In this document: positions 1,683 through 52,650 of the stretch, one piece after another | Layout of the letters: each line of letters begins with the position of its first letter | Position numbering within the stretch: the first letter of the stretch is position 1 | Source of the DNA: a virus | IMG/VR virus record: IMGVR_UViG_3300045988_118310 | Span: 1 to 64,000 of that record | Direction: 5' to 3' (one strand) | DNA: 64,000 nucleotides | Made by a program: the position numbers and the translations under genes | The notes under the pieces: generated by a model | Database searches by the model: none | Told to the model about the DNA's origin: nothing | The model's input: the letters and a program-made list of their open reading frames with translations, nothing else

Positions 1683-1877
1683 TCAAACGGAATATGCCTG
1701 TTCTATGTATTTTTCAAAGGCTTTTCGCTTTATCAGCTGTTTTCTGCCCACAAATATTACAAACGGACAGTTTTTCTCTTGAAGGAGCTCTCGTATCTTG
1801 CATTGACCGATATTAGAATACGCCGCTGCTTCTTCGATTGTCAGGGTCGTCTTTTCCCAAATTGGGACTTCCTTCAT
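1683..1877 (-). CDS. xis: excisionase-like HTH DNA-binding protein
   Basis: 64 aa with a helix-turn-helix (LTIEEAAAYSNIGQCKIREL) immediately upstream of int; 4-nt overlap with the next gene. Confidence 0.55.
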   Translation of the reverse strand: MKEVPIWEKTTLTIEEAAAYSNIGQCKIRELLQEKNCPFVIFVGRKQLIKRKAFEKYIEQAYSV

Positions 1878-2701: not shown

Positions 2702-2739
2702 TGTAACCCTCCTTTATAAGAATCCAAGTTCTTATGAAA

Positions 2740-3213
2740 TTACGAGTATCTGTAGCAATTCCAAACTTCGTCAGACTTATTGTAAATATTGTCTGGGTGC
2801 ATCCCAATTTTTAAGGCCAATTGATTTGATGCCACATTATCTTTTCGAGTTATCCACAACAATGGTTTATTATCAAAATCGGATCTATGAGCTGTATACC
2901 ATTTAATTGCCGATTGTGCAAGATTCAAAGCGTATCCATGTCCTCGATAGTTTTTATCGTTTCTTGTTGCAACCGCTACATCTATATATGAACATTCTTC
3001 AAACAGGTCAAAAAACGCGACAGGAGTATCGTTACTAATTTTCAAGAATCTTTTTATAACATGTTCTCCTGCTGGAATTGTTAGATATTCGTCATTGTAA
3101 ACACCAAGCATCCGCTGTTCCTCTGAAGATAGTGTTTTAACGATGTCATCTACAAGTGGTTTTGTTTTTGCTGTAGCTTTTGCTCTTTGTATATAAATAT
3201 TATTTTCGCACAT
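2740..3213 (-). CDS. GNAT-family N-acetyltransferase
   Basis: RGHGYALNL ... ASNQLALKIG acetyl-CoA-binding pattern (R/Q-x-x-G-x-G/A). Confidence 0.5.
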   Translation of the reverse strand: MCENNIYIQRAKATAKTKPLVDDIVKTLSSEEQRMLGVYNDEYLTIPAGEHVIKRFLKISNDTPVAFFDLFEECSYIDVAVATRNDKNYRGHGYALNLAQSAIKWYTAHRSDFDNKPLLWITRKDNVASNQLALKIGMHPDNIYNKSDEVWNCYRYS

Positions 3214-3230
3214 TATAAAACCCTAATTCT

Positions 3231-3455
3231 TCAACCATTACGCTTCACTCCTTCACAATAGAATTTATGGAGCATCTTTTCGTATTCGCATCGGCACTGC
3301 GGGCATAAATCTGAAATCGCACCTTTATCTTTTAAGCTCCATCTTTTAGAGTCGGAAATACAGCAGCCCACGATACAGTCTGGGAAACGTGCCTTTCTAA
3401 CAAGTGCTTCTTCCCCACAACGGTCACAATAAATTTTTACATATTCTTCAGTCAT
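3231..3455 (-). CDS. small cysteine-rich zinc-ribbon protein
   Basis: CxxC...CxxC pairs (CDRCGEE, CPQCRC); start ATG overlaps upstream TGA (ATGA) so the internal Met is used rather than the longer ORF. Confidence 0.4.
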   Translation of the reverse strand: MTEEYVKIYCDRCGEEALVRKARFPDCIVGCCISDSKRWSLKDKGAISDLCPQCRCEYEKMLHKFYCEGVKRNG

Positions 3456-3886
3456 AACAAGTACCTCAATCCGCTCAGATATTTTTCCTTCAACCGTGGC
3501 GTCAGTGTATCCACCTGTGACAGATGATCTTTCATGTCGGCCAGCTTGACAAACCAAGCACATTTGCCCCAATCAGGTTTTGCAGATAGTTTGATAATGT
3601 CGCAATACTCATCGTAACCCATTCCTTTTGGCTTTGTAAGTTTCAAAAGTGCTTTGTGAAAATTCGGAGGTAGATCGCCGGGAGCAGGATCATACTCAGT
3701 ATCTTCAATCAAATCGTGCATAAACGCTAGACATTGACAATCATTTCTTAACCGATCCGGGATTGCCTCGTTCATGACAACATAATAGAATACTCGTCTT
3801 GCATGCTCTAAGGTTTTCTTGTCATAATATTTTTCTGCAAGTGTAATCGCATCGTCAAGGAACATATAATTTTTATCAAACGCCAT
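3452..3886 (-). CDS. HD-domain phosphohydrolase
   Basis: H...HD motif (AFMHDLIEDT). Confidence 0.55.
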   Translation of the reverse strand: MAFDKNYMFLDDAITLAEKYYDKKTLEHARRVFYYVVMNEAIPDRLRNDCQCLAFMHDLIEDTEYDPAPGDLPPNFHKALLKLTKPKGMGYDEYCDIIKLSAKPDWGKCAWFVKLADMKDHLSQVDTLTPRLKEKYLSGLRYLL

Positions 3887-3928
3887 AATATTTTTTTGTG
3901 TCCCTCCCCACCCACCACTACCGAATGT

Positions 3929-4228
3929 TTACGTTACTTTTTCAAAGGTAAAAACTGTGTGTTTGGTCGTGATTTCTACGAAACTTTCATCGGTTGCAAT
4001 ATCAACGGCAACTACTGGAGAAGTATGCATTCCACCGCCATACGGGTTTCCTTTGTTATCTTTTACATATCGAAACTGAGCAATCCAACCAAGTTCAAGT
4101 GGCCGAAACTGCATCGTCATACCAACCCACTCAGGGTACCATCCATCAGTGCGTGGCACGCCAGTATTAACGTGAACTGCGCTCTTCATAATATAATTGC
4201 CTTTCGGCATTTGGATCAAATCGTTCAT
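3929..4228 (-). CDS. hypothetical protein
   Basis: same-strand packed ORF; internal Met chosen to avoid 130-nt overlap with upstream gene. Confidence 0.35.
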   Translation of the reverse strand: MNDLIQMPKGNYIMKSAVHVNTGVPRTDGWYPEWVGMTMQFRPLELGWIAQFRYVKDNKGNPYGGGMHTSPVVAVDIATDESFVEITTKHTVFTFEKVT

Positions 4229-4232
4229 TGAT

Positions 4233-4661
4233 TTACTCCTTATCTGGTTTCCACGGCCATCCGTCATCGGGTCGTCTTTCTGATTCGTCTTTAACATACC
4301 AGCTATTGTCTCCAGTATAAATTTCCACAGAAACACAATATTCAGCTCTGATATATCTTTCATTAAAGTTCATATATTTAGGATTGCCGTTAAACGCAGC
4401 TTTGATCATATTGTTTGCGCGATCGATAGCATTGTAAATGTCTTCGTCAAGCTTCTCTTTCGCATCCCAAGCTGTCTTCGCATCCAAATAACTAAACAGA
4501 GATCGTTGATAAGTATCGCTAAACTTATCGCCGTTTTCCATGATGTAATACACAGTAACAGACCTCGATGTATATGGGAGTTTAAGGTCTTTTGCTTTTA
4601 CAACAACAGGTTCTTCTTCGACTTCAACCAGCTGATTTTCCTCTGATTTATTCCAGAACAT
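4233..4661 (-). CDS. hypothetical protein
   Basis: 142-aa ORF in the gene run. Confidence 0.4.
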   Translation of the reverse strand: MFWNKSEENQLVEVEEEPVVVKAKDLKLPYTSRSVTVYYIMENGDKFSDTYQRSLFSYLDAKTAWDAKEKLDEDIYNAIDRANNMIKAAFNGNPKYMNFNERYIRAEYCVSVEIYTGDNSWYVKDESERRPDDGWPWKPDKE

Positions 4662-4959
4662 TTTGCATCACCCGCTCCTTTTCATTCCAGTGTTTGATAC
4701 CGTATTTGTCACGAACACAATTTAATCTTGCAAGGACTTCTTTATATTGCGGATTGTTTGGTTCTGTCTCGAATATAGCTGTCTCTGCTTTCCCAAGTTC
4801 TTCGTTGTATCTATAACCACCATTTCTTAGCTTCTCCCCAATGACAATCAATTCGTCATCACTTTGTACTGATTCGTCATAGATACCATTTTCATCGTAA
4901 TATTTGACACGTCTTTCTCTAAGAGGGTCCACAATTGTATAACCAAAAGCGAATCTCAT
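4648..4959 (-). CDS. hypothetical protein
   Basis: ORF downstream of dut; internal Met start (long form overlaps dut). Confidence 0.35.
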   Translation of the reverse strand: MRFAFGYTIVDPLRERRVKYYDENGIYDESVQSDDELIVIGEKLRNGGYRYNEELGKAETAIFETEPNNPQYKEVLARLNCVRDKYGIKHWNEKERVMQNVLE

Positions 4960-4978
4960 AAAACAGCCCTCCAAAATT

Positions 4979-5455
4979 TTACTTTCCAGTAGAACCAAAG
5001 CCTCCACACCCACGCTCGGTTTCATCCAGTTCATCGACCATATCAAACTGCGCTTGATAATACGGAACGAACATAAACTGTGCGATACGGTCACCATGTA
5101 CAATTTCCTGGGACGTATCAGAGTGATTGTGGAGCGGAACAAATGCTTGGCCGCGATAGTCTTCATCGATAACACAAGCTTTGTTTGCAGGAGCCAGACC
5201 TTTCTTAGTAGCCAAACCACTGCGGGCAAATCCGAGGATAGCCCAGCCTTCAGGAGGAGCAAAACGCAGACCAGTACCAATCATACGAGTGGAGTGAGGC
5301 GGAAGATAGATAATAGGGTTCCCCTGACTGTCGAACAGGTCGGCCTGATCCGCCGGGATATACGCATAAACATCAGCACAAGCGGCCTTCTCAGTGCCAT
5401 AAGTCGGAATGTGTGCATCAGGATAAATCTTGTTTACTTTTACGATAGGATTCAT
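4979..5455 (-). CDS. dut: dUTP diphosphatase
   Basis: dUTPase motifs RSG, IDEDYRG, GDRIAQ, RGCGGFGSTG. Confidence 0.85.
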   Translation of the reverse strand: MNPIVKVNKIYPDAHIPTYGTEKAACADVYAYIPADQADLFDSQGNPIIYLPPHSTRMIGTGLRFAPPEGWAILGFARSGLATKKGLAPANKACVIDEDYRGQAFVPLHNHSDTSQEIVHGDRIAQFMFVPYYQAQFDMVDELDETERGCGGFGSTGK

Positions 5456-18206: not shown

Positions 18207-18233
18207 GTATCCTGTGTTATATAGTTATAGCTA
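18207..18233 (-). promoter_or_regulatory. conserved intergenic motif TAGCTAT..AACACAGGATAC just upstream of the ligase RBS
   Basis: same ~21-nt motif recurs at 18276, 18336(+), 33497, 37759, 43742, 45234(+). Confidence 0.45.
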
Positions 18234-18275
18234 ATAAAGAAAGGCTTGTCGTTACGAGCAAGCCTTCTCTTTCTC
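18232..18275. terminator. stem-loop with flanking T/A-rich runs between helicase and ligase genes
   Basis: GGCTTGTCG-TTA-CGAGCAAGCC hairpin flanked by aataaagaa and ttctctttctc; could terminate either strand. Confidence 0.4.
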
Positions 18276-18294
18276 GTATCCTGTGTTATGCATC
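18276..18294 (-). promoter_or_regulatory. second copy of the ACAGGATAC motif
   Basis: cgtatcctgtgttatgcatc. Confidence 0.4.
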
Positions 18295-18335
18295 TAAAGA
18301 GAGAATTTTAAGCCTACGGGATGGAGACTTTTTAT

Positions 18336-18355
18336 AACTATATTATACAGGATAC
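18336..18355 (+). promoter_or_regulatory. inverted copy of the ACAGGATAC motif
   Basis: taactatattatacaggatac in plus orientation, forming an imperfect inverted repeat with the 18276 copy. Confidence 0.4.
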
Positions 18356-33481: not shown

Positions 33482-33530
33482 AACTAAACTCCTTATGTAT
33501 CCTGTATTGCATAGCTAATGCTAAAATAAA

Positions 33531-36276: not shown

Positions 36277-37731
36277 TTATCCTCCTTGCTTTTCTGGAAA
36301 ATGCTTCTTAGTTACTGCAACGCAGAACGGTTCAATTTCAGATCCCCAGATAGCAGTACCATCACCATACGTACTTTCAAAGACAAGCGGAAAGCCACCG
36401 ATTCCATCAAAAAGACTGCCAAGCGTAGGATTCTCACCGATATACGGCTTCATTTTCTGGAAAATCCAATACCACTGAGGCAATGCAATCGAATTGCCGA
36501 GCGCCTTGTAACGAGGAGAATCAGCTGGTTTGTGCTTTTTACCATTCTCATCAACCCACTCGCCAATATCAGTCCATCCATCAGGGAACCCTTGAAGTCG
36601 TTCACACTCGACAGGAGTCAGGCGACGAACAATCCATTGCAGATTCTTCGTTTCCTTCTCTGCAATCAAGTCAGTAGCATCCTTGTAGTCACGAGATTTC
36701 ATCGTACTAGCTTGTTCACTTTCCTTGTATTCACCAATGCGTTGCATTGCAAAGGTTTTCTTTTCAGCAACAAGCGGCATATTATTGCCACCAGTCCCCC
36801 ATTGAGCCGTACAAGCCGGACTTGTGTCGCCCTGTTGAGTGTATCGAGCATCCTGACTGTGACTCTCAAACACCACCGGCGAAATCTTTTGTTTTGAATT
36901 ATGTAAAGAGGTGTTGTCTGCCAAGCAAATTAACGTTTGATCTTGCAATGTAGAAAGCGTTGCGCTCTTCTCGATTTGTACCAGTGCGCCTTTGCCACCA
37001 CCTTCGCATCCTGAACGAATCTTTAAAGTGTAGGCAACAGCATTACGGTCAATAGTGTTTATAGTGAAAGCAGTATCTTCTTTTACACCAGTCCCATTCA
37101 TGTTGGTTTCTCTGTCAATCATGTTTCCGACGATACAAAAGCTTTTTTCTCCCACCACTCGATCATTTCCAACAATGCATTTTTCAGCAATTCTGGCAGC
37201 ACCTTGCCACGTCGGGATGCTCTCGTCAGAATTCCCTGGCACGCCCGTGCGCTCAAATAATATCTTTGCGGCACGTTGTCCTCCAAAATCCATGACAAGC
37301 GCGATTCTTTGACGACGTTGGGGCACTCCCCAGTATTGAGCATCGAAGAGTCTCCATGCCAAAGACCATCCATTACCGGAAATTGCGCCGGATTTAGACC
37401 ATTTTCCACCTTTTTCCGAAGGTTTAGGAATTGTAGCGTCTGCTTCGACGATGTGTGCAAATTCTTCCAAGACACATCGGAAGTCTTCTCCGTTGTTTGA
37501 GGAGAGTGCTCCTCTAACATTTTCCCAGATTGCAAATTTTGGATATTCTCCATTGGTGGTATCCCTCATTTCTTTTATCACACGAATCATTTCCATAAAT
37601 AGACCAGACCGTTCTCCAGCCAAACCTGCCCGCTTACCGGCAATAGAAAGATCTTGGCTAACAAGGTGAACCACCAGTGATACACGAGACAGGTTCAATC
37701 TTAGAACCATCAATCTCGCAAATACTTCCAT
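36277..37731 (-). CDS. DNA cytosine-5 methyltransferase, circularly permuted (motifs V-X followed by I-II), catalytic Cys encoded out of frame upstream
   Basis: ENV, QRRQR, RLTPVECERLQGFPDGW, GNSIALP then LFDGIGG and SEIEP...HFPE at the C-terminus; N-terminus reads ...LVSQDLSIAG lacking PC. Confidence 0.65.
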   Translation of the reverse strand: MEVFARLMVLRLNLSRVSLVVHLVSQDLSIAGKRAGLAGERSGLFMEMIRVIKEMRDTTNGEYPKFAIWENVRGALSSNNGEDFRCVLEEFAHIVEADATIPKPSEKGGKWSKSGAISGNGWSLAWRLFDAQYWGVPQRRQRIALVMDFGGQRAAKILFERTGVPGNSDESIPTWQGAARIAEKCIVGNDRVVGEKSFCIVGNMIDRETNMNGTGVKEDTAFTINTIDRNAVAYTLKIRSGCEGGGKGALVQIEKSATLSTLQDQTLICLADNTSLHNSKQKISPVVFESHSQDARYTQQGDTSPACTAQWGTGGNNMPLVAEKKTFAMQRIGEYKESEQASTMKSRDYKDATDLIAEKETKNLQWIVRRLTPVECERLQGFPDGWTDIGEWVDENGKKHKPADSPRYKALGNSIALPQWYWIFQKMKPYIGENPTLGSLFDGIGGFPLVFESTYGDGTAIWGSEIEPFCVAVTKKHFPEKQGG

Positions 37732-37758: not shown

Positions 37759-37779
37759 GTATCCTGTGTTACATAGCTA
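37759..37779 (-). promoter_or_regulatory. ACAGGATAC motif upstream of the MTase RBS
   Basis: gtatcctgtgttacatagcta. Confidence 0.4.
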
Positions 37780-37882: not shown

Positions 37883-37963
37883 TGGTGGGACATGTCGGAC
37901 TTGAACCGTGATACATATGCTCAGTTATGAGCTGAGTTCTCTAACCAATTGAGATAATGTCCC
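37883..37963 (-). tRNA. tRNA-Met/Ile2-like (anticodon CAT), CCA encoded; T-stem imperfect
   Basis: acceptor GGGACAT/ATGTCCC, D-stem TCTC/GAGA, anticodon stem CTCAG/CTGAG loop CTCATAA; GGTTCAAGTCC T-arm. Confidence 0.55.
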
Positions 37964-38094
37964 ATAAAAACCAGTTAAATAGCTGCAACTATTCAACTGG
38001 GCACCTTCCTTATAAAACGCTATTGCATCTATATCATATAGACGAGGAAGGAATAACAGCGATGCACATTTCCTATATCTCGCCCCTTTCGGGG

Positions 38095-38152
38095 TGGTAT
38101 CTCGCACAGGCGCGGCCAGATCTGACCGCCAAAGATCCTACCCATACGAGAT
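38095..38152 (-). ncRNA. 57-nt tRNA-minihelix-like element ending in CCA, directly after tRNA-Gly
   Basis: TCTCGTA/TGCGAGA terminal pairing, internal AGATCT palindromes, ends ...TACCA followed by a CCCCGAAAGGGG hairpin. Confidence 0.3.
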
Positions 38153-38227
38153 TGGAGCAGCGAAAGGTAGTCGAAACCTCATCCTCAGCTTGGAAGGCTG
38201 ATGTACTAGCCGTTGTACGACCGCCGC
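38153..38227 (-). tRNA. tRNA-Gly (anticodon TCC), CCA encoded
   Basis: cloverleaf: acceptor GCGGCGG/TCGCTGC (2 GU), D-stem GTAC/GTAC, anticodon loop CTTCCAA, T-arm GAGGT-TTCGACT-ACCTT. Confidence 0.7.
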
Positions 38228-38233
38228 ATGAAA

Positions 38234-38284
38234 ACCCAGCTTACAAAACACTACTGCACCATCACTGGCGAGCTGGGAATAATA
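38234..38284 (-). repeat. R1: conserved ~50-nt inverted-repeat spacer element (CCCAGCT...AGCTGGGAATAAT) upstream of tRNA-Gly
   Basis: shares acccagcttac...cactgc...gagctgggaataat with R2. Confidence 0.4.
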
Positions 38285-38328
38285 GTGGTCAAAGGAGTTC
38301 AACCATGAACAACAACGATTCATGACCG

Positions 38329-38410
38329 TGGTGCGGATAGTGGGCATCGAACCCACACGCCGAAGCACCAGATCCTAAATCTGGCGTGTCTGCCATTCCA
38401 CCATATCCGC
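38329..38410 (-). tRNA. tRNA-Leu (anticodon TAG), long variable arm, CCA encoded
   Basis: acceptor GCGGATA/TATCCGC, anticodon loop TTTAGGA, variable arm TGCTTCGGCGTG, T-arm GTGGG-TTCGATG-CCCAC. Confidence 0.75.
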
Positions 38411-38415
38411 ATAAA

Positions 38416-38486
38416 TTGCGCCAACAGGGGTCGAACCTGTGATGGAGGAGTCAAAGTCCTCTGCCTTACCGCTTGGCGATGGCGCA
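38416..38486 (-). tRNA. tRNA-Gln (anticodon TTG), no encoded CCA
   Basis: acceptor TGCGCCA/TGGCGCA (U1-A72 as in bacterial tRNA-Gln), anticodon stem GAGGA/TCCTC loop CTTTGAC, T-arm ACAGG-TTCGACC-CCTGT. Confidence 0.7.
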
Positions 38487-38495
38487 TCATATACC

Positions 38496-38549
38496 CAGCT
38501 TACTACGCCACACTGCTCCGTTTCCAGAGAGCTGGGAATAATGTGAATG
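38496..38549 (-). repeat. R2: second copy of the inverted-repeat spacer element, upstream of tRNA-Gln
   Basis: tacccagcttac...cactgctcc...gagctgggaataat. Confidence 0.4.
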
Positions 38550-38571
38550 AAAAATTCTACATGCCCTTTCG

Positions 38572-38647
38572 GGCTGGTCCGAGTGACAGGTCATGATCCT
38601 GCGGCCTCATGTTCCCAAAACACGCGCTCTTCCAACTGAGCTACACC
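38572..38647 (-). tRNA. tRNA-Pro (anticodon TGG), CCA encoded, atypical T-loop
   Basis: acceptor CCGGGTG/CACTCGG, D-arm GCTC-AGTTGGAA-GAGC, anticodon loop TTTGGGA, T-loop ATCATGA. Confidence 0.55.
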
Positions 38648-38654
38648 CGGATAT

Positions 38655-38741
38655 AAATGCCACCGAGGAGAGTTGAACTCCTAATCTCTTACGAGCGTTC
38701 CGGTTTAAGCGGAAAGTGTATGCCATTTCCACCACGGTGGC
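38655..38741 (-). tRNA. tRNA-Leu (anticodon TAA), long variable arm, no encoded CCA
   Basis: acceptor GCCACCG/CGGTGGC, anticodon stem TTCCG/CGGAA loop CTTAAAC, T-arm AGGAG-TTCAACT-CTCCT. Confidence 0.7.
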
Positions 38742-38821
38742 ACATCAACACTGTCTGTCCAGCAGTCAACCGTCTTTCCGATTTTGCCAATATTCTAGCA
38801 CTTGCCCATCTGCAAATGGGT

Positions 38822-38900
38822 TGGTAGCCCTACTCAGATTTGAACTGAGAATTTTACAAGGTTTGAGCTTGTTGCGTATGCCTAATTCCGCCATAGGGCC
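38822..38900 (-). tRNA. tRNA of uncertain identity (anticodon CAA, short variable arm, large D-loop), CCA encoded
   Basis: acceptor GGCCCTA/TAGGGCT, anticodon stem ACAAG/CTTGT loop CTCAAAC, T-arm CTCAG-TTCAAAT-CTGAG. Confidence 0.5.
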
Positions 38901-38967: not shown

Positions 38968-41178
38968 TTATTCGTGCCGATTCTCATAGAATTCATTCCG
39001 AAGCTGAATGATGTTCTTTTTGCAGAACGATTCGTGATCGGCATCATTCTGTTGTCTCATCCATCCGTAGAAGTTGTTGTCTTCTGCGGTGAACAATTTT
39101 GAGGTGTGTTCGTAGTATCCACGCTTTTGAACGCTCTGCATAACACTACGCAAGAATTTCCAGTGCTTATAGCAAGGAAGCTTCAGCTTAAACATGAAAT
39201 TGTTGTTATCTCTCAAAACAAAGCCTTCAACGTGTTTAAAGCCATGATGCAGATAGTTCTCGTTCATGACTTCCTCGTACCAAGGATAGAATTCACGCCA
39301 GTTCTCAAAGGTCTTAACCTTCTCCTTAATCTGCAGATGACACTTCTCGGCTACACGCTTCAAATCATCATAATCCATTACACTGAAATTCATATCATTT
39401 GCAATAATATCCAGCAAAACAACGTGCGGTTTCTTATATTCGATGATATGCGCATCATTCACAGGATCAATCACCTCGAAGATGATGGAGCCATTCTCTT
39501 TTGCAAATTCTTTCAGATTCTTACGGTCTTCATCAGAAGTCGTATCCATGAGAATCTTTCGAAACATATCTGCAAAAGGCCCTTCAGGAGTGGATTTACT
39601 TGCAATGAACAGACTATCCTGTTCTGCATCATACGAAATGATACCAAGAAATCCGTTCTCTTTTAGATATGCAGTCACCGGGAACTTCAAAGTGTTCTGT
39701 AGGTTTCCAATTCTCGTTTCATTCCGCTCATCAACCGCAAAGAACTTATCATAGCTTCGAGCTACAATCTTATTCGTCTTTGTGTTAATGAACAATCCCC
39801 TTGCTTTGGTAGAAACCTCATCCCAGTGCTTCTTATAAAATGCTTCACGAGAGAAGTTGAAAGAAGAAATATCTCCGAATCGCTTCTCAAACACATATTT
39901 GCTTTGACGCATCTTACTAACAAGTTCTGCGTTATCGAACTCAGTTTTCAGTTCAACGACAGTTTCAGTCTTTGGCTCCTCTTTTTGGAACACATCGTTC
40001 TTGGTTTCTACACACTTGATTGACTGACCGTGTTCAAGTTCCACGCAACGAAGATATCCACCAAACTCGATTTTTCCTTCGAGGTTGTAGCACTGATGCC
40101 CCATATCAATAGGAACATCCTGCACATTTCGATGTCCAAAGATTTGGAAACATCCGTCAGGCATCTTTTGTTCCCATGACTCTGCGACAGTGAGCATGTC
40201 AGAGTAGCGGCCAACACCCTTTACCATCTGGTCAGTAGACACGAACGGTAGAAATTCAGGCAAATAACTCAAACCACCATGGCTAACGAAGTATCTTTTA
40301 TCATCGTAATCAAAATAGGAGCACTGTCCTACTCTTGAATAGACCTTACGAGCCGTATTATGGTCAATCCCTGCTTTAAAAAGCTGCGGACGAGTGTAGT
40401 TTGTAAATTCCTCACTCTGAACCGGCTCGTCATGACCCCACTTGTTTAGCCACCGTTCATGATTTCCTTCAAGGAGAATTACATTCTTCCGATTATTGTC
40501 TACAACATCACAAAGGAACTTGAACATCTCTACATTTTCAATTCCACGATCCAGATAATCGCCAACAAAAATGTACAGCTCATCGTCCTTCAGGTCTCCA
40601 AGGTACTCTTTCAGGCAACTGTAGCATCCATGCACATCACCGATGATATGAATTTTGCTCCAATTATTAAAATCCTGCGGAACATAGTTCAATTTTTCAA
40701 GGACATTGACATCCGACGAAAGCACAGTCACTCCAGACGGAATTTTTTGTGTTGCGAATCGTGCATACATCTTATCAATGACAGCATCTGGAACTCTCTT
40801 CAGTGGGGCACGGAGCGAATTGCGCCGCTTGCACTCATCAATCGGCAAGCCCGTCATGTCAATGATGTACATTCTGTACCTGTACTGCTTGGCGAGGTTC
40901 TTGTAGCGATTGATTTCGACCGTTTTAGAATTCGTTGCATCGATCACGGTGAACTCACCATGAGACATCCGAACCTCCAACAGCTTAAAGAGCATATCCC
41001 AGACAACATCATCGTTCTGGGGAGAGATTTCCATTGTGCCAGCCGGGGTTTCCTGACCACCCTGGCACATAAGACGAATCGTATCTGCACTAAGCGTATA
41101 CTTTTCCAGATCATGCTCTTTAATATAGGGGGACTTCCCGCATCCGGGTGCTCCACGGAAAAGAAGCAAAGTTCTCAT
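38968..41178 (-). CDS. Pnkp-like polynucleotide kinase - metallophosphatase - ligase (RNA repair enzyme)
   Basis: P-loop GAPGCGKS + VIDATN (kinase); GDVHG, GDYLDRG, GNHE (calcineurin-like phosphatase); KENG, FEVID, EGFVL, FKLK (nucleotidyltransferase ligase motifs I, III, IV, V). Confidence 0.75.
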   Translation of the reverse strand: MRTLLLFRGAPGCGKSPYIKEHDLEKYTLSADTIRLMCQGGQETPAGTMEISPQNDDVVWDMLFKLLEVRMSHGEFTVIDATNSKTVEINRYKNLAKQYRYRMYIIDMTGLPIDECKRRNSLRAPLKRVPDAVIDKMYARFATQKIPSGVTVLSSDVNVLEKLNYVPQDFNNWSKIHIIGDVHGCYSCLKEYLGDLKDDELYIFVGDYLDRGIENVEMFKFLCDVVDNNRKNVILLEGNHERWLNKWGHDEPVQSEEFTNYTRPQLFKAGIDHNTARKVYSRVGQCSYFDYDDKRYFVSHGGLSYLPEFLPFVSTDQMVKGVGRYSDMLTVAESWEQKMPDGCFQIFGHRNVQDVPIDMGHQCYNLEGKIEFGGYLRCVELEHGQSIKCVETKNDVFQKEEPKTETVVELKTEFDNAELVSKMRQSKYVFEKRFGDISSFNFSREAFYKKHWDEVSTKARGLFINTKTNKIVARSYDKFFAVDERNETRIGNLQNTLKFPVTAYLKENGFLGIISYDAEQDSLFIASKSTPEGPFADMFRKILMDTTSDEDRKNLKEFAKENGSIIFEVIDPVNDAHIIEYKKPHVVLLDIIANDMNFSVMDYDDLKRVAEKCHLQIKEKVKTFENWREFYPWYEEVMNENYLHHGFKHVEGFVLRDNNNFMFKLKLPCYKHWKFLRSVMQSVQKRGYYEHTSKLFTAEDNNFYGWMRQQNDADHESFCKKNIIQLRNEFYENRHE

Positions 41179-41246: not shown

Positions 41247-41630
41247 TTAATTCAACTCTTCCAGCTTCTTCATTAGCTGGTCAACGTCCATATCTTCAAG
41301 TTCCTTGTCCTTCTTCTTTGCAACGATCTTCATAATCTTATCACGTTGCGCCTTCTTCTCTGCGGCGTCCACACGTGCCTCGTACTCGGCCAGCCTGACA
41401 GAAACGATGTATTTGACTAGCTCAATCTTATTTTCCAGTTCTGTATTTTCGGCGCTCTTAACAGCCAGCAAAGAATCTTCATCTGCGGTTTTCTTTTGAC
41501 GGTTCAGAGTCTTAAAAATCGCATCCAGTGCCTCGACGCTCAGAGCCCACAGATCTTCAACAGTCATAACACCCTTATAGTTGAAGCGATAGCGATTACG
41601 GGTTGCAATTTCAAACAGATTCTTTTCCAT
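41247..41630 (-). CDS. hypothetical coiled-coil protein
   Basis: 127 aa, Lys/Glu-rich C-terminal half. Confidence 0.4.
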   Translation of the reverse strand: MEKNLFEIATRNRYRFNYKGVMTVEDLWALSVEALDAIFKTLNRQKKTADEDSLLAVKSAENTELENKIELVKYIVSVRLAEYEARVDAAEKKAQRDKIMKIVAKKKDKELEDMDVDQLMKKLEELN

Positions 41631-41644
41631 AATTATTTCTCCTT

Positions 41645-43711
41645 TCAGATAACCACTTTCAAAATTCGCTCAGTAGCTCCCTGCACCTTAACAATAAAGG
41701 AATCCTGCTTCGTTTCAGAGAATCCAACGCCGGACAGCTGATCATTTACCGACTGAACTGCCATCTGAGAACCCAGCGCCTCAAATACTCGCTTATGCTG
41801 TAGCAATTCCGCCTTCAGGAATTCGTTGTAAAATCCGTTCGGCTTTTCGGGGTTGACGCAATCCTTGAGCATGAAGAAGTAGTGACGATTGCCATTGCCG
41901 GTCTGTTCGTCCCAGTAGTTCGGAGAGTACATCGCCACAGACACAGGTACGAACTGGTTGGAACTCACACCCCAAATTTCACGGGTGCTGGTAGAACTGG
42001 GAAGCAGTTCCTTGATAGAGAATTTGCCATCCTTCAGAGTGACCTTTGCCACAGCTACATTCTGACCACCATGCAGCGGCTTATCGTAGTTAAACGAGTA
42101 GATGTTGCCATCGAATTCGATTTCAGCACGGAAACCGGTTTTGCCGCCGCGACTAGCGAAGCAGTTTACATAGAAGCTGTACTCGCCTTCCTTCATCTTT
42201 TTGATGTCAGGCCAGGTGATATTCTCGACCGCGGCCTTATAGCGAATGGGACGCATAATATCTACGTCCAGGCGGCCATCAGTACGAGGGTGCCACTTGC
42301 TGCCGAAATAGATGTGATTCTTATCGGGTTCAATGCAATGAGCATCCTCATCATTTTCATCCCACTCGCCCGGCTTATCGTTCCACTGAATAGAGAAACG
42401 CAGCACGCCATCGACTTTGCCGCCAGCATTCTTGACGTTCTCCCGAATCTGGCTGTCAGTCATGTTGCCGGTATATGCCCAACTGAAACCATTAGGCCAC
42501 TTGAACATAGACGGCGCAGCCTTATCCTGCAGAGCAATCAGAGACATCATATTCTTCTCGAAACGATTCTCCATAAACAGCTCTAGGCCCGTTGCAGTCG
42601 GCAGCACGTCTCTGATGAACTTGTCGATGCCGATTTCCTCCGCGCGACCGAACTTCTTAGGATCGGTGCCCATAGATTTTGCCATTGCCTCGAACGGGTT
42701 CATTGCCCCCATTACACGAGGAGCGGCATCGCGGTTGCAGAACAGAATATTGTTGGCAGTAATATCATCCAGAGTGGCAAATCGGCGACCCAGACTGTTC
42801 ATGTAACCCAACTCAGTAACGGTTTTCTGTGCATCTTCCAGCATCTTCTTAGTGAAAATAGCTTTGGGACGCTTGTAATTGGCAGGAGCGACAACCTTCT
42901 CAAAGGCGGTAACGGCGGAATCCACATCCATGCCTTCGCTCAAATTGATAAGAAGGGTGCCGATAGCGGTGTTACGAATACGAAGCCGGTTCATCGACGC
43001 ACCGCCGGGAGCCATCCAAACATAAGCGGACTTCTTTTCATCAGGCAGACGATCATACACTCGCTTATCGATTTTGAAGCCACGAACCAGAGATTCAAAC
43101 TCCTTGCCGCGATACAGGCTGTTCTGCGCAATCAGCTCAAGTACGGTGTCCACGGCATCCATGGTCAGCTCCTCCAGAGAACGCTTGAACACATTAGCAG
43201 AATCACGCCACTCGGCCATCTTGGTAGTCACATCGCAGGAATTGACAATGAACCGCTGAGGAATCTCGACAGCGAAATGATCCCAGGTGTGAACCGCCTT
43301 ATGATCAGCATCGTACTCATAGTTTACCTCCGTGCCGAACTTGCCATCGGAGATCATATTGCGGCTAACATAATACGGATTCACAACAGCACAGGTTTTC
43401 ACATAAGTAGCCAGCGCATCCACAACCGGCTGATAAACGTCGGACTTGGTATCGAAATCCCAGACGGTAACCATCTGACCATCCATAAAGGAAACCAGCT
43501 TACCAATGTTCTTTACGAAACGACGGCAGTAGGAGCAATCATACTTACGCCGCTTACGGAAGATGGAGTTCGTGCCAGCCGGGAAGCTGTCCAGATAGAG
43601 GTCATATAGCTTATCCTCATCTGCATTGGTGATAAACAGAGGTGCGCCATCCTTCACCATCTCATTGAAGTGATCCTGCAGTAGTGCACGAAATTTCTTG
43701 AAATCAGACAT
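41645..43711 (-). CDS. large hypothetical protein (688 aa)
   Basis: no confident family; CSYCRRF pair and an isolated GGKVDGVLRF (KxDG-like) segment; preceded by the ACAGGATAC motif. Confidence 0.5.
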   Translation of the reverse strand: MSDFKKFRALLQDHFNEMVKDGAPLFITNADEDKLYDLYLDSFPAGTNSIFRKRRKYDCSYCRRFVKNIGKLVSFMDGQMVTVWDFDTKSDVYQPVVDALATYVKTCAVVNPYYVSRNMISDGKFGTEVNYEYDADHKAVHTWDHFAVEIPQRFIVNSCDVTTKMAEWRDSANVFKRSLEELTMDAVDTVLELIAQNSLYRGKEFESLVRGFKIDKRVYDRLPDEKKSAYVWMAPGGASMNRLRIRNTAIGTLLINLSEGMDVDSAVTAFEKVVAPANYKRPKAIFTKKMLEDAQKTVTELGYMNSLGRRFATLDDITANNILFCNRDAAPRVMGAMNPFEAMAKSMGTDPKKFGRAEEIGIDKFIRDVLPTATGLELFMENRFEKNMMSLIALQDKAAPSMFKWPNGFSWAYTGNMTDSQIRENVKNAGGKVDGVLRFSIQWNDKPGEWDENDEDAHCIEPDKNHIYFGSKWHPRTDGRLDVDIMRPIRYKAAVENITWPDIKKMKEGEYSFYVNCFASRGGKTGFRAEIEFDGNIYSFNYDKPLHGGQNVAVAKVTLKDGKFSIKELLPSSTSTREIWGVSSNQFVPVSVAMYSPNYWDEQTGNGNRHYFFMLKDCVNPEKPNGFYNEFLKAELLQHKRVFEALGSQMAVQSVNDQLSGVGFSETKQDSFIVKVQGATERILKVVI

Positions 43712-43741: not shown

Positions 43742-43762
43742 GTATCCTGTATTATATATCTA
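43742..43762 (-). promoter_or_regulatory. ACAGGATAC motif upstream of the 688-aa gene
   Basis: gtatcctgtattatatatcta. Confidence 0.4.
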
Positions 43763-43797
43763 ACGTATTAAAATCAAGGAGCCGAAGCCCCCTGTTT

Positions 43798-44724
43798 TTA
43801 ATTTTTATGGAAATATTCGACCCAACCTTTGTATCCTTGTCTGAAGCTAATGTAGGCAACCTTGCTACACTTTCTTCCGATAATGTCTGCAAGAGGGTCT
43901 TTACCATTTCCGAAACTAAGTTCTGCAAGATTAAATTCTGGATTATTCTTACAGTAGTCGTAGACCTTCACGTATTCGCCGTTTCTGGTTAGATGCCTTC
44001 GATCTAAAGCCTTTGAGTGATATCTTTTTTCGAGGATGTTATTCAACCGCATAAAATAGGTATGAATTGTATGCACAGACATCTTTGGGTCACTGTCTGC
44101 ACCGATACTATCCTCGGTTTTACGAATGATGTAATCACCATTCATGACATAGAATGCCCTATACCCTCCCTTATTGGGAGCGTCATACTGTTTCATTTCA
44201 TAACACTGCTTAATAATATCCATCAACTTTGCATCAACACCTGTCTTATCAAGAACAGTACAAGATTCAAAATCGACATCGTTAATCGTCAGGTTAGAAA
44301 CTTCTTCAGAAGTAAGGCCAATCCAGTACAGTGCAGCAATCACGTTCATACGAATCTGATATGGCTCTTCATACTTATTTAAGAAGTCAACAAACTCATC
44401 AACTGATGCAAAGTATTTATCCGCATACATATTGTCTGCGCTTACATCGCTCTCTGAAAAGTCAGCCAGATCATACATGCTTGTTTTGTTTTCGCTTTTG
44501 ATGTAGCCTGTGATTATTGACTTCACATTTTTAAACGAACGACTCGAGTTCACCCAATTATATTTGGCAAACATCTTTACGAAATCATCTTTTGTGAAGT
44601 CAAACAACTCATACCCACGCTCAGCCTCGTAACCCAGAACATGGTTAAGCGTCGATACAACAAACTCACCGCTTCTATCAGAATACTTTTCAGCAAAAGC
44701 TTTGATCTTTTCTTCAGTAAGCAT
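43798..44724 (-). CDS. divergent tyrosine-recombinase-like protein
   Basis: box-I-like RMNVIAALYWIGLTSEEVSNLTINDVDF; C-terminal region with His/Arg/Tyr but non-canonical spacing. Confidence 0.35.
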   Translation of the reverse strand: MLTEEKIKAFAEKYSDRSGEFVVSTLNHVLGYEAERGYELFDFTKDDFVKMFAKYNWVNSSRSFKNVKSIITGYIKSENKTSMYDLADFSESDVSADNMYADKYFASVDEFVDFLNKYEEPYQIRMNVIAALYWIGLTSEEVSNLTINDVDFESCTVLDKTGVDAKLMDIIKQCYEMKQYDAPNKGGYRAFYVMNGDYIIRKTEDSIGADSDPKMSVHTIHTYFMRLNNILEKRYHSKALDRRHLTRNGEYVKVYDYCKNNPEFNLAELSFGNGKDPLADIIGRKCSKVAYISFRQGYKGWVEYFHKN

Positions 44725-44777
44725 AGTGGCACACTCCTTCTTATTATATGTAGTGTACCATTAACCATTATAAAAAA

Positions 44778-45197
44778 TCAAGCAAATGCGGCAAAATTTT
44801 GAAATTCCATGGTATGTTGTACGCCGCTCAGGAATGCTGCGAGTAAAAACGGTTCATCCTTGCATCTTGCCATTGCGATCATATTCATATGACGCTCAGA
44901 CAAGACACCAAGCTTTTTGATGAACTGTCCTTTGTTAAGTGTATCAGTCTCTTCACAAAGAACAATACTATCAACCTCTAGGAAATCGCAGTCTTCTTTC
45001 GAGAGTAGAACATGAACCGGAGAACGCTTGTATATTCTGGAAGACAACGGATTCCCTTTGATTGTGGGACTGAAGAAGTTGCGCTTGTTGTTGCTTGTCA
45101 CAACGAACGGTCGAATACCGCGCTGCTGATGACCTGTTGCATTGGACAAATCGACCAACCAAACCTCTCCGACCTTTGGGTCAATATTGTTGTCCAT
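44778..45197 (-). CDS. MazF/PemK-family endoribonuclease-like protein with ~30-aa C-terminal extension
   Basis: GEVWLVDLSNATGHQQRGIRPFVVTSNN and downstream conserved core. Confidence 0.6.
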   Translation of the reverse strand: MDNNIDPKVGEVWLVDLSNATGHQQRGIRPFVVTSNNKRNFFSPTIKGNPLSSRIYKRSPVHVLLSKEDCDFLEVDSIVLCEETDTLNKGQFIKKLGVLSERHMNMIAMARCKDEPFLLAAFLSGVQHTMEFQNFAAFA

Positions 45198-45233
45198 AGT
45201 TTTTCTCCTCTATAATAGTGTAGCTCCGTTCCA

Positions 45234-45254
45234 TAGCTATATTATACAGGATAC
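45234..45254 (+). promoter_or_regulatory. ACAGGATAC motif (plus orientation) upstream of the MazF-like gene
   Basis: tagctatattatacaggatac. Confidence 0.35.
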
Positions 45255-45288
45255 CATTTCAGAAGTCAAGAGGTTTTTGAAAATATTT

Positions 45289-45633
45289 TTAGTGCCCGTA
45301 CAACTCGGGATTCTCTGATACGAACACGCTTGTGTTATCGAATATCATCTCATACGCTTTCTCTTTATCGCCCGGTCTAAGCTCAATCCTCCTTGCTTCG
45401 TGGCATTCTTGCCGCAGCTCAATATGACTTTCGTTTCCGAAGAAGCCAATGCCTTTAACGATCCCATGTGTCTCTGTTCCAACATCGTTCATTTTGTTAC
45501 AGACCATGTGAACATCTACACCATTGCAAACAAAACAAACCCACACTCTCTTTTTTCTTATGTACTTTAAAAAGTCATCAACTCGTATGACCTTCAGAAC
45601 CTTTCTCTCACGCATTAAAACACCGCCCTCCAC
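45289..45633 (-). CDS. hypothetical protein
   Basis: 114-aa ORF. Confidence 0.3.
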   Translation of the reverse strand: MEGGVLMRERKVLKVIRVDDFLKYIRKKRVWVCFVCNGVDVHMVCNKMNDVGTETHGIVKGIGFFGNESHIELRQECHEARRIELRPGDKEKAYEMIFDNTSVFVSENPELYGH

Positions 45634-45665
45634 TCATTTAGACAACTTTCAAGATATATTATACA

Positions 45666-45718
45666 CATCTTTTTGTTTTAGTCAATATATTATACATCTT
45701 TTTGTTGTTGTAAAAGTT
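45666..45718. repeat. direct repeat atatattataca(c)atctttttgtt x2
   Basis: two near-identical ~23-nt units resembling the 5' half of the ACAGGATAC-family motif, in the upstream region of gene 45289..45633. Confidence 0.4.
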
Positions 45719-47129: not shown

Positions 47130-47360
47130 TTATTCGACTCGCTTATTCCACGCTTCGATAAGGTCGGCTTTGATTCTTTCCTTGTCTTTTTCAGAGGAAT
47201 CAAAGTAGTAAGTTTTGCTTTCCATGAAAACATGGCAGTTGCACCTATTTTCTTTGTTTCCTCTCGTAACATACATCCATCGTGTTTGGCGATAACTGCC
47301 CTCTGCAACGGTAACTTCTCCACCACAAAAAGGACACGGCTTTAATTTATATTCACTCAT
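47130..47360 (-). CDS. small zinc-ribbon protein
   Basis: CPFCGG...C.C. Confidence 0.35.
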   Translation of the reverse strand: MSEYKLKPCPFCGGEVTVAEGSYRQTRWMYVTRGNKENRCNCHVFMESKTYYFDSSEKDKERIKADLIEAWNKRVE

Positions 47361-51810: not shown

Positions 51811-52650
51811 TCAGTCTTCCAAGCTGTGTGTATTCACACCATAAAAAGTCTTCTTATAATATTCTTTTGCCTTATCCTCATCAAAACCAACGTACCGTAA
51901 TGTAATATCCTGACTACTATGATTCAACTGACCCTGAATCCAAGACAATGCCTGGTTATCATCCTTATTAAGACACATCTCACGATAACCAAATGTCTTA
52001 CGGCAAGAATGAGATGCAATCTTATAATTAAGACCCAAATCTTTGCCAGCGTTACGAAGAATACGAGCAAAAGAATCAACATCAATAGGATCACCGGCCT
52101 TTTTGGGTTCTGCAATATGAGGAATACCAGTTTTCCCATCTCCACCATTTGTCCTCAACGACTTTTTCCAGCTCCCCTGCCGAGACGGAAACATCCAATC
52201 GTCATATCCAAGTTTCGCAATCTTAATATATGTTTCAACAATATCCCTCGCTTCTGGAGTAAGGATGATTTCTCGATACTTGGACGTTTTTTCTTCAACG
52301 ATACACACTCCAGCGTCTTCAACCACTTCAATTTTTCCATTATAAAGGCAATAAGACATATCGGAAACTTTCAATTTGAGTAAATCACTAGCACGTAACC
52401 CGGTTGCGATACCTACGTTAAATAGACACCAATTGCGATATTGCTTTTTATCCCAGAAGTATTCCGAAATCATTTGAACATCATCCAAGCTTCTAATTGG
52501 AGAAATATTACGCTTACGCTTCTGCTTACTTCTTGTAACACCACGTTTTTTAGCCGGAACAGAAGGTTTCGGATTAAAATAAATCAATTTAGGTATCTGT
52601 TCTTCTTTTCTTTCAACAACTGCGCTCATTATATTCACCTCAAACTCCAT
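51811..52650 (-). CDS. small tyrosine recombinase (Xer/phage-integrase family)
   Basis: box I GLRASDLLKLKVSDM, box II HSCRKTF...LNHSSQDITLRY. Confidence 0.7.
   Translation of the reverse strand: MEFEVNIMSAVVERKEEQIPKLIYFNPKPSVPAKKRGVTRSKQKRKRNISPIRSLDDVQMISEYFWDKKQYRNWCLFNVGIATGLRASDLLKLKVSDMSYCLYNGKIEVVEDAGVCIVEEKTSKYREIILTPEARDIVETYIKIAKLGYDDWMFPSRQGSWKKSLRTNGGDGKTGIPHIAEPKKAGDPIDVDSFARILRNAGKDLGLNYKIASHSCRKTFGYREMCLNKDDNQALSWIQGQLNHSSQDITLRYVGFDEDKAKEYYKKTFYGVNTHSLED

Follow-up and report, generated by a model that had tools for sequence, protein, structure and literature searches.

In the Bacillus phage SPbeta, the repressor MrpR binds a non-palindromic element, SPBRE, at about 10 promoters, which include the one that drives its own operon, a toxin-gene promoter and the promoter of yorE, a gene upstream of the replication genes (PMC10516654). 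The binding site of SroF measures 24 bp and is occupied by a monomer (bioRxiv 2025.11.27.690993). In phage phi3T, lysogeny is efficient only with host MazF activity, and AimX and YosL act as MazE-like inhibitors that permit lysis (PMC10769878; bioRxiv 2023.04.27.537455); SroA and SroB are described, in a statement of bioRxiv 2026.08.06.743204 that cites Brady 2023, as binding MazE, whereby host MazF is released. Here we analyse a mazF-like gene on a 64,000-nucleotide (nt) stretch of viral DNA (IMG/VR record IMGVR_UViG_3300045988_118310, positions 1 to 64,000; hereafter, the window), which is part of an approximately 130-kb SPbeta-like prophage of gut Bacillota and covers about half of its genome. 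A first-pass annotation had described the gene as encoding an orphan MazF/PemK-like endoribonuclease with a C-terminal extension and no recognisable antitoxin. The notion of an orphan toxin without antitoxin is right in a narrow sense; what matters more is that the gene is consistently paired with that of an SPbeta-type master repressor and stands under an operator-like element that recurs in the phage. We put at about even the chances that this phage-encoded MazF acts in lysis-lysogeny control and is restrained mainly by repressor-mediated transcriptional shut-off.

Comparison of the locus with the sro operon (yopMNOPQR) of SPbeta and phi3T shows that in both cases the last gene encodes an MrpR/SroF-like protein with a recombinase fold, and the likeness extends to the SPbeta-like backbone, to a long non-palindromic element that is repeated at many early promoters, that of the operon among them, and to a link between the operon and MazF activity. 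The Bacillus sro operon encodes SroA and SroB, which free host MazF, whereas the gut-phage operon encodes MazF itself. The phage MazF has its fold, its catalytic Arg and Ser/Thr and its Pfam family in common with B. subtilis MazF (EndoA/NdoA) and S. aureus MazF, but, compared to chromosomal type II mazEF loci, it has no upstream MazE gene, and it has its own promoter, a tail of about 24 amino acids (aa) and a repressor gene as its neighbour. Members of PHROG 1936, from Lactobacillus, Lachnospiraceae, Enterocloster, Psychrobacillus and other phages, are likewise phage MazFs without an annotated antitoxin; those examined differ in that they are 118-120 aa long, carry no tail, are encoded in structural or replication modules with no MrpR-like neighbour, and have no described function. 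Repression replaces an antitoxin in RacR-YdaS of the rac prophage (PMC5700373) and at the MrpR-bound spbT promoter of SPbeta (PMC10516654); neither of these toxins, however, is a MazF nuclease or shares a transcript with the repressor, and in the gut phage repressor binding is presumed. In the literature on arbitrium and MazF, on phage-encoded or orphan MazF toxins, and on Sro proteins, we found no phage MazF described in an operon of this kind. The solitary MazF-mx of Myxococcus xanthus, reported by Nariya and Inouye in Cell in 2008, is said to have no MazE and to have as its antitoxin the transcription factor MrpC, an unrelated DNA-binding regulator that reportedly controls it both transcriptionally and by binding. 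MrpC is said to belong to the CRP family, to be unrelated to MrpR and unlinked to mazF-mx on the chromosome, and not to be part of a phage system; MazF-mx would nevertheless be a precedent for a reading in which toxin and repressor are partners.

The features of the locus, from upstream to downstream of mazF, are the following.

45658..45685, minus strand: sigma-A-type promoter of the 108-aa gene (TTGACT-16-TATAAT, 11/12 consensus), without the ACAGGATAC element discussed below
45289..45615, minus strand: upstream gene, 108 aa, of unknown function (a longer, GTG-started open reading frame (ORF) extends to 45633)
45241..45269, minus strand: sigma-A-type mazF promoter, PmazF (TTGACT-17-TATAAT, 11/12 consensus positions)
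45234..45254, plus strand: 21-nt element TAGCTATATTATACAGGATAC, candidate operator, inverted with respect to the genes; it overlaps the -10 of PmazF, some of the spacer and the predicted transcription start
44778..45197, minus strand: mazF-like gene, ATG start, 139 aa, with the MazF fold at residues 8-115
44781..44852, minus strand: codons of the C-terminal extension, residues 116-139, with the motif DEPFLxxAFLxGVQxTxxFxxFxxFA and two extra predicted helices
44747..44752, minus strand: UACAUA in the 53-nt mazF-repressor spacer, in the loop of a predicted hairpin
43798..44724, minus strand: 308-aa MrpR/SroF-like protein, tyrosine-recombinase fold, presumed repressor
43775..43794, minus strand: intrinsic terminator after the repressor-like gene, end of the mazF-repressor unit

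The gene product is a MazF-family protein

The assignment of the N-terminal part of the 139-aa protein to the MazF fold is borne out by profile and structure comparisons. The protein matches PF02452 PemK_toxin over residues 8-108 (E = 3.8e-19, 69.3 bits vs. a cut-off of 23.1) and phrog_1936, 'MazF-like growth inhibitor' (E = 1.6e-21), which belongs to the PHROG category 'host takeover', and the two peptides originally quoted in favour of the assignment, GEVWLVDL and GHQQRGIRPFVVTSNN, are both present in the translation. Among solved structures, MazF of S. aureus and MazF/EndoA of B. subtilis come closest in sequence (E of about 1e-13 to 1e-10; phmmer E = 9e-14 for S. aureus MazF). An AlphaFold2 (AF2) model, for which 26 family members served as input, has a mean predicted local distance difference test score (pLDDT) of 87.4 and a predicted template modelling score (pTM) of 0.78. 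Foldseek comparison of this model to S. aureus and B. subtilis MazF gave target-normalised template modelling (TM) scores of 0.82-0.85 over 112-115 columns with 30-36% identity, and the top 50 matches in the PDB were all MazF/PemK toxins (target TM-scores up to 0.87); by model and structure comparison alike, the protein has the SH3-like beta-barrel of the MazF/Kid fold.

Alignment with the B. subtilis, S. aureus and E. coli MazF proteins places the invariant R29 at the position of the catalytic R25 of B. subtilis MazF (BsMazF), and S52 at that of the catalytic T48, a position occupied by S or T in 19 aligned family members, so that neither catalytic residue is missing. In BsMazF, the T48A substitution abolishes RNase activity (PMC10769878). 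The RNA-contacting loops of BsMazF are substituted in the phage protein (GSEQGG to GHQQRG, and EQIRT to EETDT). Judging from fold and catalytic residues, the ORF probably encodes a catalytically competent MazF-family endoribonuclease. The exact protein already bears the NCBI label 'PemK/MazF family toxin', from a Blautia sp. metagenome-assembled genome (MAG) and from Caudoviricetes MAGs, and the novelty therefore lies in the architecture of the locus.

We identified at least 156 relatives in IMG/VR. Among the best 80 loci, which come from human-gut datasets (contigs of 125-140 kb), MazF is 97-100% identical, whereas the flanking genes are 75-95% identical, with the neighbours of mazF at 80-90%. 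The ratios of nonsynonymous to synonymous divergence (dN/dS) and the synonymous divergence (dS), calculated by the Nei-Gojobori method among distinct alleles (44 alleles for mazF), were as follows.

mazF: dN/dS 0.025, dS 0.35
upstream 108-aa gene: dN/dS 0.125, dS 0.63
downstream 308-aa gene: dN/dS 0.08, dS 0.70

The value for mazF indicates strong purifying selection, and the gene is therefore clearly functional. The synonymous divergence of mazF is also about half that of its two neighbours (0.35 vs. 0.63 and 0.70; loci L007-L086), which suggests that selection acts on the RNA or that the mazF allele has spread more recently by recombination.

The C-terminal extension marks a MazF subfamily

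The C-terminal extension that had been noted is present, conserved and predicted to be helical, but its length is about 20-24 aa instead of the 30 or so originally given. Past the end of the MazF fold, at about residue 115, it measures about 24 aa; compared to BsMazF, it consists of a 6-aa insert in the last canonical helix and about 13 terminal residues, that is, about 19-20 aa more. The two predicted helices span residues 116-123 and 130-138 (pLDDT of about 84-90 in the AF2 model). All 26 family members retain the tail (58-87% identity), with A110, R111, D114, E115, P116, L118, F122 and F132 invariant. A wider set of MazFs of about 140 aa, drawn from a scan of 1.84 billion representative proteins, has 27-48% identity and can be aligned through the tail, with P116, A121 and F132 retained, whereas the tail is missing from canonical phage MazFs, such as that of Perkons (120 aa). 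Because it is common to all members and to the wider set, the tail defines a subfamily and must be old rather than newly acquired. Single-protein scans of viral sequences for the distant tail-bearing MazFs P0249 and P0256 gave no match.

Comparison of the tail to the MazF-binding C-terminal regions of MazE, YosL and AimX detected no similarity. Given also that the tail is the mark of a wider subfamily, the idea of a toxin regulated by its own tail finds no positive support; the tail probably provides a surface for partner docking or oligomerisation.

mazF is linked to an MrpR/SroF-like gene across lineages

The gene immediately downstream of mazF encodes the 308-aa protein, which matches phrog_5830, 'integrase'. 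Aligned by hhalign to SPbeta YopR/MrpR, a nine-sequence profile of its family gave a probability of 90% (E = 1.5e-6) over 233 columns that take in both domains. In the alignment with XerA, the box I catalytic Arg ('GVR') stands opposite 'GLt' of the profile, which corresponds to L137-T138, so that Thr138 occupies the position of the Arg; MrpR has Ala at this position. The 308-aa protein has no match to PF00589 Phage_integrase, and a tblastn search with it against phages gave no match. The counterparts encoded beside mazF in related loci match PF22822 MrpR_N_CB above its cut-off of 27 bits, with 32.2 (L001), 27.7 (P0110), 34.2 (L092), 41.9 (L103), 54.7 (L106) and 58 bits (L107). The terminal gene of the unit is thus MrpR/SroF-like, with a recombinase fold that lacks the box I catalytic Arg, as is typical of sro operons. 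No SroE/YopQ gene is present in the window, where mazF directly precedes the 308-aa gene.

Across nine lineages, a tail-bearing mazF lies just upstream of an MrpR-like gene in eight, down to a MazF identity of 31%. The lineages, with the identity of their MazF to that of the window and the downstream gene product, are listed here.

Window group: MazF 97-100%; MrpR-like protein
L001: MazF 69%; MrpR-like protein
L004: MazF 63%; MrpR-like protein
L092: MazF 59%; MrpR-like protein
L093: MazF 58%; 322-aa protein with a weak MrpR_N_CB match
L103: MazF 39%; MrpR-like protein
L106: MazF 31%; MrpR-like protein
L107/L101: MazF 36%; 413-aa protein, then a 311-aa MrpR-like protein
L094: MazF 60%; DNA methylase, the sole exception

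In L107, a viral contig of 143 kb, the 413-aa protein is a homologue of SPbeta YopQ/SroE (BLASTP E = 2e-9 over about 400 aa), and the 311-aa protein belongs with the MrpR-like family (hhalign E = 1.7e-17, in addition to its PF22822 match); the order mazF, YopQ/SroE, SroF-like reproduces the 3' half of the SPbeta sro operon. By contrast, the tail-less phage MazFs of Perkons, PMBT24 and a Coprococcus phage (118-120 aa) are found in unrelated contexts, without an MrpR-like neighbour. The gene is therefore not the free-standing orphan that it was taken for, but a fixed member of a set, composed of a small upstream protein, MazF and an MrpR/SroF-like protein, in SPbeta-like prophages. These findings suggest that MazF and the repressor have long been partners and are so widely, and that certain phages have taken the nuclease into their own genomes.

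In the distant relatives L107, L093 and L094, a divergent repressor gene is located at least one gene upstream of the pair formed by the small gene and mazF. In L107 (1305-2144, minus strand) its product is CI/LexA-like, with helix-turn-helix (HTH) and S24 peptidase domains; in L093 (4043-4306, minus strand) and L094 (1220-1477, minus strand) it is a small HTH_3 protein. These genes resemble a classical divergent immunity region, and there is no such gene in the window.

A repeated 21-nt element overlaps the mazF promoter

An inverted ACAGGATAC motif had been pointed out in the promoter region of mazF. It is present at 45246-45254 on the plus strand, that is, inverted relative to mazF, and as part of a longer element it is far beyond chance. 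The window contains 7 exact copies of ACAGGATAC, and 25 copies with at most one mismatch vs. 10.5 expected. The motif is the 3' arm of a 21-nt element, TAGCTATNNNANACAGGATAC (TAGCTAT-N5-ACAGGATAC), which occurs in 7 copies vs. 0.12 expected, all of them intergenic. Apart from the copy at PmazF, these are the following.

43742..43762, minus strand, sense: upstream of the next operon (688-aa gene)
37759..37779, minus strand, sense: upstream of the C5 DNA methylase operon
33497..33517, minus strand, sense: upstream of the replication operon (97-aa gene, then AAA_24/YorG-like gene)
18207..18355, three copies, those at 18207 and 18276 sense and that at 18335-18355 inverted: between the RecD2-like helicase and DNA ligase genes

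The five sense copies, which precede the 688-aa gene and the methylase, replication and ligase operons, each come directly after a terminator, at a distance of 5-25 nt from the ribosome-binding site that follows. Like the copy at mazF, the inverted copy at 18335-18355 overlaps a promoter (TTGACA-17-TATAAT), and in both inverted copies the AT-rich centre of the element is altered such that a perfect TATAAT results on the gene strand, 17 nt from TTGACx. Among 29 variants of the mazF promoter, the 21-nt element is invariant, and the -35, the -10 and the block GTATCCTGTATAATRTAGCTATGGAACGGAGCTA are conserved, whereas the 8 nt between the -35 and this block vary freely. All 66 full-length related loci carry the inverted element at their mazF promoter, and in 57 of them a sense element follows the repressor-like gene.

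In other lineages, the elements at the mazF promoter and upstream of pnkp or yorF differ from that of the window and from each other. The element of L001 is CTACTAACAAA, which is inverted at mazF but has the sense orientation upstream of pnkp and yorF, at a distance of 26 nt; at the equivalent places, L004 has TATAATAACAAA and L092 has AAYTTGNCTAACRAAAT. The elements thus change along with MrpR-like proteins that are 22-32% identical, while the replication genes are similar, as could be expected of an immunity operator and not of a conserved polymerase promoter.

The 12 nt that follow the element (region 45215-45236, minus strand), GGAACGGAGCTA, are likewise conserved in nearly all of the 29 variants, form a 5-bp inverted repeat with the TAGCT of the element, and could be a second protein-binding determinant. 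The predicted RNA structure of the mazF 5' untranslated region is no better than that of shuffled sequence (z = -0.86).

Transcription unit and the UACAUA motif in the spacer

We found no terminator-like site between the 108-aa gene and mazF, nor between mazF and the 308-aa gene. The simplest unit would be PmazF-mazF-repressor, with the two genes presumably co-transcribed, and the unit is possibly also reached by read-through transcripts that start at the strong promoter of the 108-aa gene, where there is no candidate operator. An internal promoter candidate for the repressor gene, inside the 3' end of mazF (44794..44767), was rejected, its TATAAT being changed to TATAAG or TTCTCA in most relatives.

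The motif U^ACAUA is cleaved by MazFs of Bacillota, including those of B. subtilis, Listeria and S. aureus (bioRxiv 10.64898/2026.08.06.743204). In all five of the closer lineages (the window, L001, L004, L092 and L093), the spacer between mazF and the repressor-like gene (51-76 nt), which otherwise cannot be aligned from one lineage to the next, contains UACAUA, and the ribosome-binding site follows about 10-25 nt further on; the chance of this is about 2-3% per spacer at the background of 28 sites per 64 kb. The motif is absent from the spacers of the distant lineages. In the window, the hairpin that presents it in its loop has 9 bp and takes in part of the Shine-Dalgarno sequence, with z = -0.3 overall. 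The spacer UACAUA could be a self-processing site for the phage or the host MazF, or it could be part of a promoter-like block, TACATATAAT. On the sense strand of the window, UACAUA is not depleted (28 observed vs. 17-25 expected), and finding none within the mazF and mrpR-like ORFs has no significance (about 0.6 expected); with neither UACAU nor UACAUA depleted on this strand, self-immunity through avoidance of MazF sites was rejected.

The upstream gene and the search for an antitoxin

The length of 108 aa, with the ATG at 45615, is shared by all database homologues of the upstream protein, which has no match in Pfam, PHROGs, NCBIfam or PADLOC; its model is beta-rich, without a DNA-binding or known antitoxin fold. 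Between its gene and mazF lie 91 nt that hold a complete promoter. A small gene precedes mazF on the same strand in 9 of 9 lineages, L094 included. Its products are detectably related among close lineages only: hhalign comparison of the 108-aa protein to its positional counterparts in L001 and L004 gave weak, collinear matches (E = 0.008 and 0.0035, respectively), and the upstream protein diverges faster than MazF (18-28% vs. 60-70% identity). In L101, L103 and L107, the gap between the upstream gene and mazF is 33-34 nt. The candidacy of the 108-aa protein as an antitoxin, or as an analogue of SroA/B or Sar, was rejected for want of support from its fold.

The earlier observation that the upstream neighbour does not look like MazE or AbrB agrees with this model, and the claim that no antitoxin is recognisable held up against Pfam, PHROGs, NCBIfam, PADLOC, phmmer and fold comparisons. 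No antitoxin of the MazE, AbrB or ribbon-helix-helix (RHH) type is adjacent to mazF, and none was detected in the 64-kb window. A search for MazE-like small ORFs on both strands, by phmmer with MazE, YosL, YopM and YopN against all six-frame stop-to-stop ORFs of the window, returned only chance-level matches; the C-terminal region of the B. subtilis MazE query agrees with the sequence of SPbeta YosL. In PADLOC, no defence-system model was matched by any of the three genes.

Upstream of the 108-aa gene, a promoter-like block occurs in tandem (45650-45715, minus strand), with ACAAAAAGATGT(G)TATAATATAT present twice and neither copy containing ACAGGATAC.

Genomic setting and neighbouring genes

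The exact MazF protein is found on at least 1000 contigs, the longest of which measures 706 kb, and contigs that carry homologues reach 784 kb; from these lengths it follows that the element is a prophage. The host is apparently a gut member of the Lachnospiraceae, Blautia by the naming of the NCBI MAGs; this label is the sole clue to the host, and neither a protein pattern nor an exact 32-nt promoter pattern gave a match among genome contigs. All genes of the window are on the minus strand, with no plus-strand genes. They include an SPbeta-like replication module that encodes an AAA_24 (YorG-like) protein, a RecJ-like exonuclease, DNA polymerase III alpha, a RecD2 helicase, an ATP-dependent DNA ligase and an anaerobic ribonucleotide reductase, as well as genes for a tyrosine integrase and a Bro-N protein; in relatives, YorF, YorH and AAA_24 genes lie downstream. 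A search for near-identical DNA among GenBank phages gave no match. Other features of the region are listed here.

51811..52650: genuine tyrosine integrase, with a PF00589 Phage_integrase match
47130-47360: Lar-like restriction-alleviation protein
41247-43711, minus strand: 688-aa protein (phrog_1735, E = 1e-248, function unknown) and 127-aa protein
38968-41178, minus strand: Pnkp-like 736-aa fusion of an AAA_33 P-loop kinase, a Metallophos domain and a T4 Rnl1-type RNA ligase
37883-38900, minus strand: tRNA cluster of seven genes (Met, Gly, Leu x3, Gln, Pro), flanked by the RNA-repair gene and the methylase operon
36277-37731, minus strand: C5 cytosine methylase
L001 7583-9814 and L004 7591-9855: Pnkp-like gene in relatives

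The domain set of the Pnkp-like protein is that of bacterial Pnkp-type RNA repair enzymes, and in many relatives its gene directly follows the repressor-like gene, with its own copy of the repeated element. The products of MazF cleavage, which carry 2',3'-cyclic phosphate and 5'-OH ends, are natural substrates of Pnkp-type healing and sealing enzymes. Pnkp was nevertheless rejected as a conserved partner of MazF, the adjacency being lost in L092, L093 and L107. The genes for the 688-aa and 127-aa proteins form an optional cassette between the repressor-like gene and pnkp, which most of the 80 related loci lack.

Of all 5-mers, CCTGG, CCAGG, GGACC and GGTCC show the strongest depletion on the sense strand of the window (for CCTGG, 11 observed vs. 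44 expected), which, with a C5 methylase and a Lar-like protein encoded, looks like restriction-site avoidance. In L004, the variable region upstream of the three genes (245-5361) encodes RlaP-like nucleotidyltransferase, NAMPT, NAPRTase, phosphoribosyltransferase-like and NAD-synthase proteins, a set of the NAD+ salvage or regeneration type that phages use against NAD-depleting defences.

Discussion

Under the reading to which we give about even chances, mazF and the downstream MrpR/SroF-like repressor gene would be transcribed together from the sigma-A promoter of mazF to the terminator at 43775-43794, and the MrpR-like protein would bind the 21-nt element as a monomer, in the way that SPbeta MrpR binds SPBRE. 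Infection or induction would then turn mazF on, and repressor, once accumulated, would turn it off again, and such transcriptional shut-off would explain why no adjacent MazE gene is needed. The gene is placed where Bacillus phages place their MazF activators and can, for this reason, be read as encoding a phage-borne version of the same effector: the phage would itself encode the MazF activity for which phi3T relies on the host, presumably with a role in favour of lysogeny. Additional control of MazF is possibly exerted by a partner that is not a MazE.

Several observations weigh against lysis-lysogeny control by repressor shut-off. The escape of a lysogen from the toxicity of leaky MazF is not accounted for. 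SPbeta lysogenisation, unlike that of phi3T, is independent of MazF (bioRxiv 2023.04.27.537455). We found no SroA-, SroB-, YopM-, YopN-, AimX- or YosL-like protein in the window, nor any arbitrium genes among the window ORFs scanned, with nothing AimR-like upstream, in a window that represents about half of the genome. The match of the 308-aa protein of the window to PF22822 MrpR_N_CB, at 19.1 bits, is below the 27-bit cut-off, the PF22823 MrpR_C_cat matches precomputed for nearly all homologues are graded weak, and L094 departs from the common gene order. Adjacency and analogy are what suggest that the 308-aa protein binds the element, and the five sense copies, which follow terminators and have no good -35, could themselves be promoters.

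Alternatively, the locus might be a non-canonical prophage toxin-antitoxin module that serves addiction or abortive infection, with a neutraliser other than MazE holding MazF in check in lysogens, which we regard as possible though somewhat unlikely. The neutraliser could be the 108-aa protein, in an antitoxin-first order, or the MrpR-like protein, in the toxin-first order of higBA, mqsRA and hicAB, with the tail docking on it. The 108-aa candidate draws on the small same-strand gene that precedes mazF in all nine lineages, even in L094 where the MrpR-like gene is missing, on its divergence, which is much faster than that of the toxin, as is often seen in antitoxins, and on the lack of a terminator before mazF combined with the short gap in L101, L103 and L107; however, the upstream proteins are not one detectable family across lineages, that of the window has neither a DNA-binding nor a known antitoxin fold, and the 91 nt that separate its gene from mazF span a complete, independently conserved promoter. 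Tail-bearing MazFs co-occur with MrpR-like genes, whereas tail-less ones do not, and a candidate operator for the downstream DNA-binding protein at the promoter of the operon matches the logic of autoregulation in such modules, but the presence of the same element at replication-gene promoters is a better fit to a phage-wide repressor regulon. A variant of this idea, in our view unlikely, is that the MrpR/SroF-like repressor itself is the antitoxin of the tail-bearing MazF, with the C-terminal helices docking on it, such that immunity and toxin control would be one module. In that case, an antirepressor, or loss of the repressor at induction or curing, would both de-repress mazF and release active RNase, and the intercistronic UACAUA would allow MazF to process the mRNA of its own operon, resulting in a feedback loop.

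The first-pass annotation had also considered a takeover nuclease or an anti-defence factor, but the operator-like element at the promoter points to lysis-lysogeny control or to a repressor-linked toxin module. As an early lytic takeover nuclease, MazF would degrade host mRNA, and that of competitors, and free ribosomes and nucleotides, while Pnkp and the tRNAs would repair or replace what is damaged; we consider this distinctly improbable. The strong sigma-A promoter, which requires no phage factor, the apparent sharing of a regulon with the early and replication operons and the PHROG category 'host takeover' all speak for it, as does the Pnkp-like gene, which follows the repressor-like gene in many relatives and is found here at 38968..41178, beside the 7 tRNA genes. 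The tight and ancient linkage, however, is to the repressor gene and not to pnkp, which is absent beside the pair in L092, L093 and L107; with UACAUA not depleted on the phage sense strand, a MazF of that specificity would cut phage transcripts too; and co-transcription with a lysogeny repressor would be odd for a purely lytic function. A different kind of alternative, which concerns regulation only and is compatible with any functional reading of mazF, is that the 21-nt element is not an operator but is read as a promoter by a phage-specific RNA polymerase or sigma factor. Transcription from the inverted copy at mazF would in that case lead away from the gene, antisense to the 108-aa gene, and occlude PmazF later in infection, acting as a temporal switch in place of lysogenic repression. 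A stretch of some 21 conserved nt does resemble the promoters of single-subunit polymerases, and the five sense copies come right after terminators, with no good -35 and with weak -10-like hexamers (TATAAC, TGCAAT and TGTAAC). We nevertheless hold this to be improbable: relatives with closely similar replication genes have quite different elements, which track the MrpR-like proteins (22-32% identical) and not a conserved polymerase; in each of the two inverted copies, the changes are exactly those that give a perfect TATAAT on the gene strand; the window has no plus-strand genes for the inverted copies to serve; and SPbeta is a direct precedent for a non-palindromic, repeated operator.

Since 2022, work on phi3T and SPbeta has shown host MazF to be a central effector of the arbitrium lysis-lysogeny decision, which raises the questions of how MazF promotes lysogeny and whether it does so outside Bacillus too. 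A very abundant family of prophages of about 130 kb in human-gut Lachnospiraceae encodes MazF inside a SroF-type repressor operon, which makes for a phage-contained and simpler system in which to ask what MazF cleaves and how the decision is biased. The tail-bearing MazF subfamily, and its control without MazE, also bear on annotation, in which such proteins now appear as a 'type II TA (toxin-antitoxin) toxin' without a partner.

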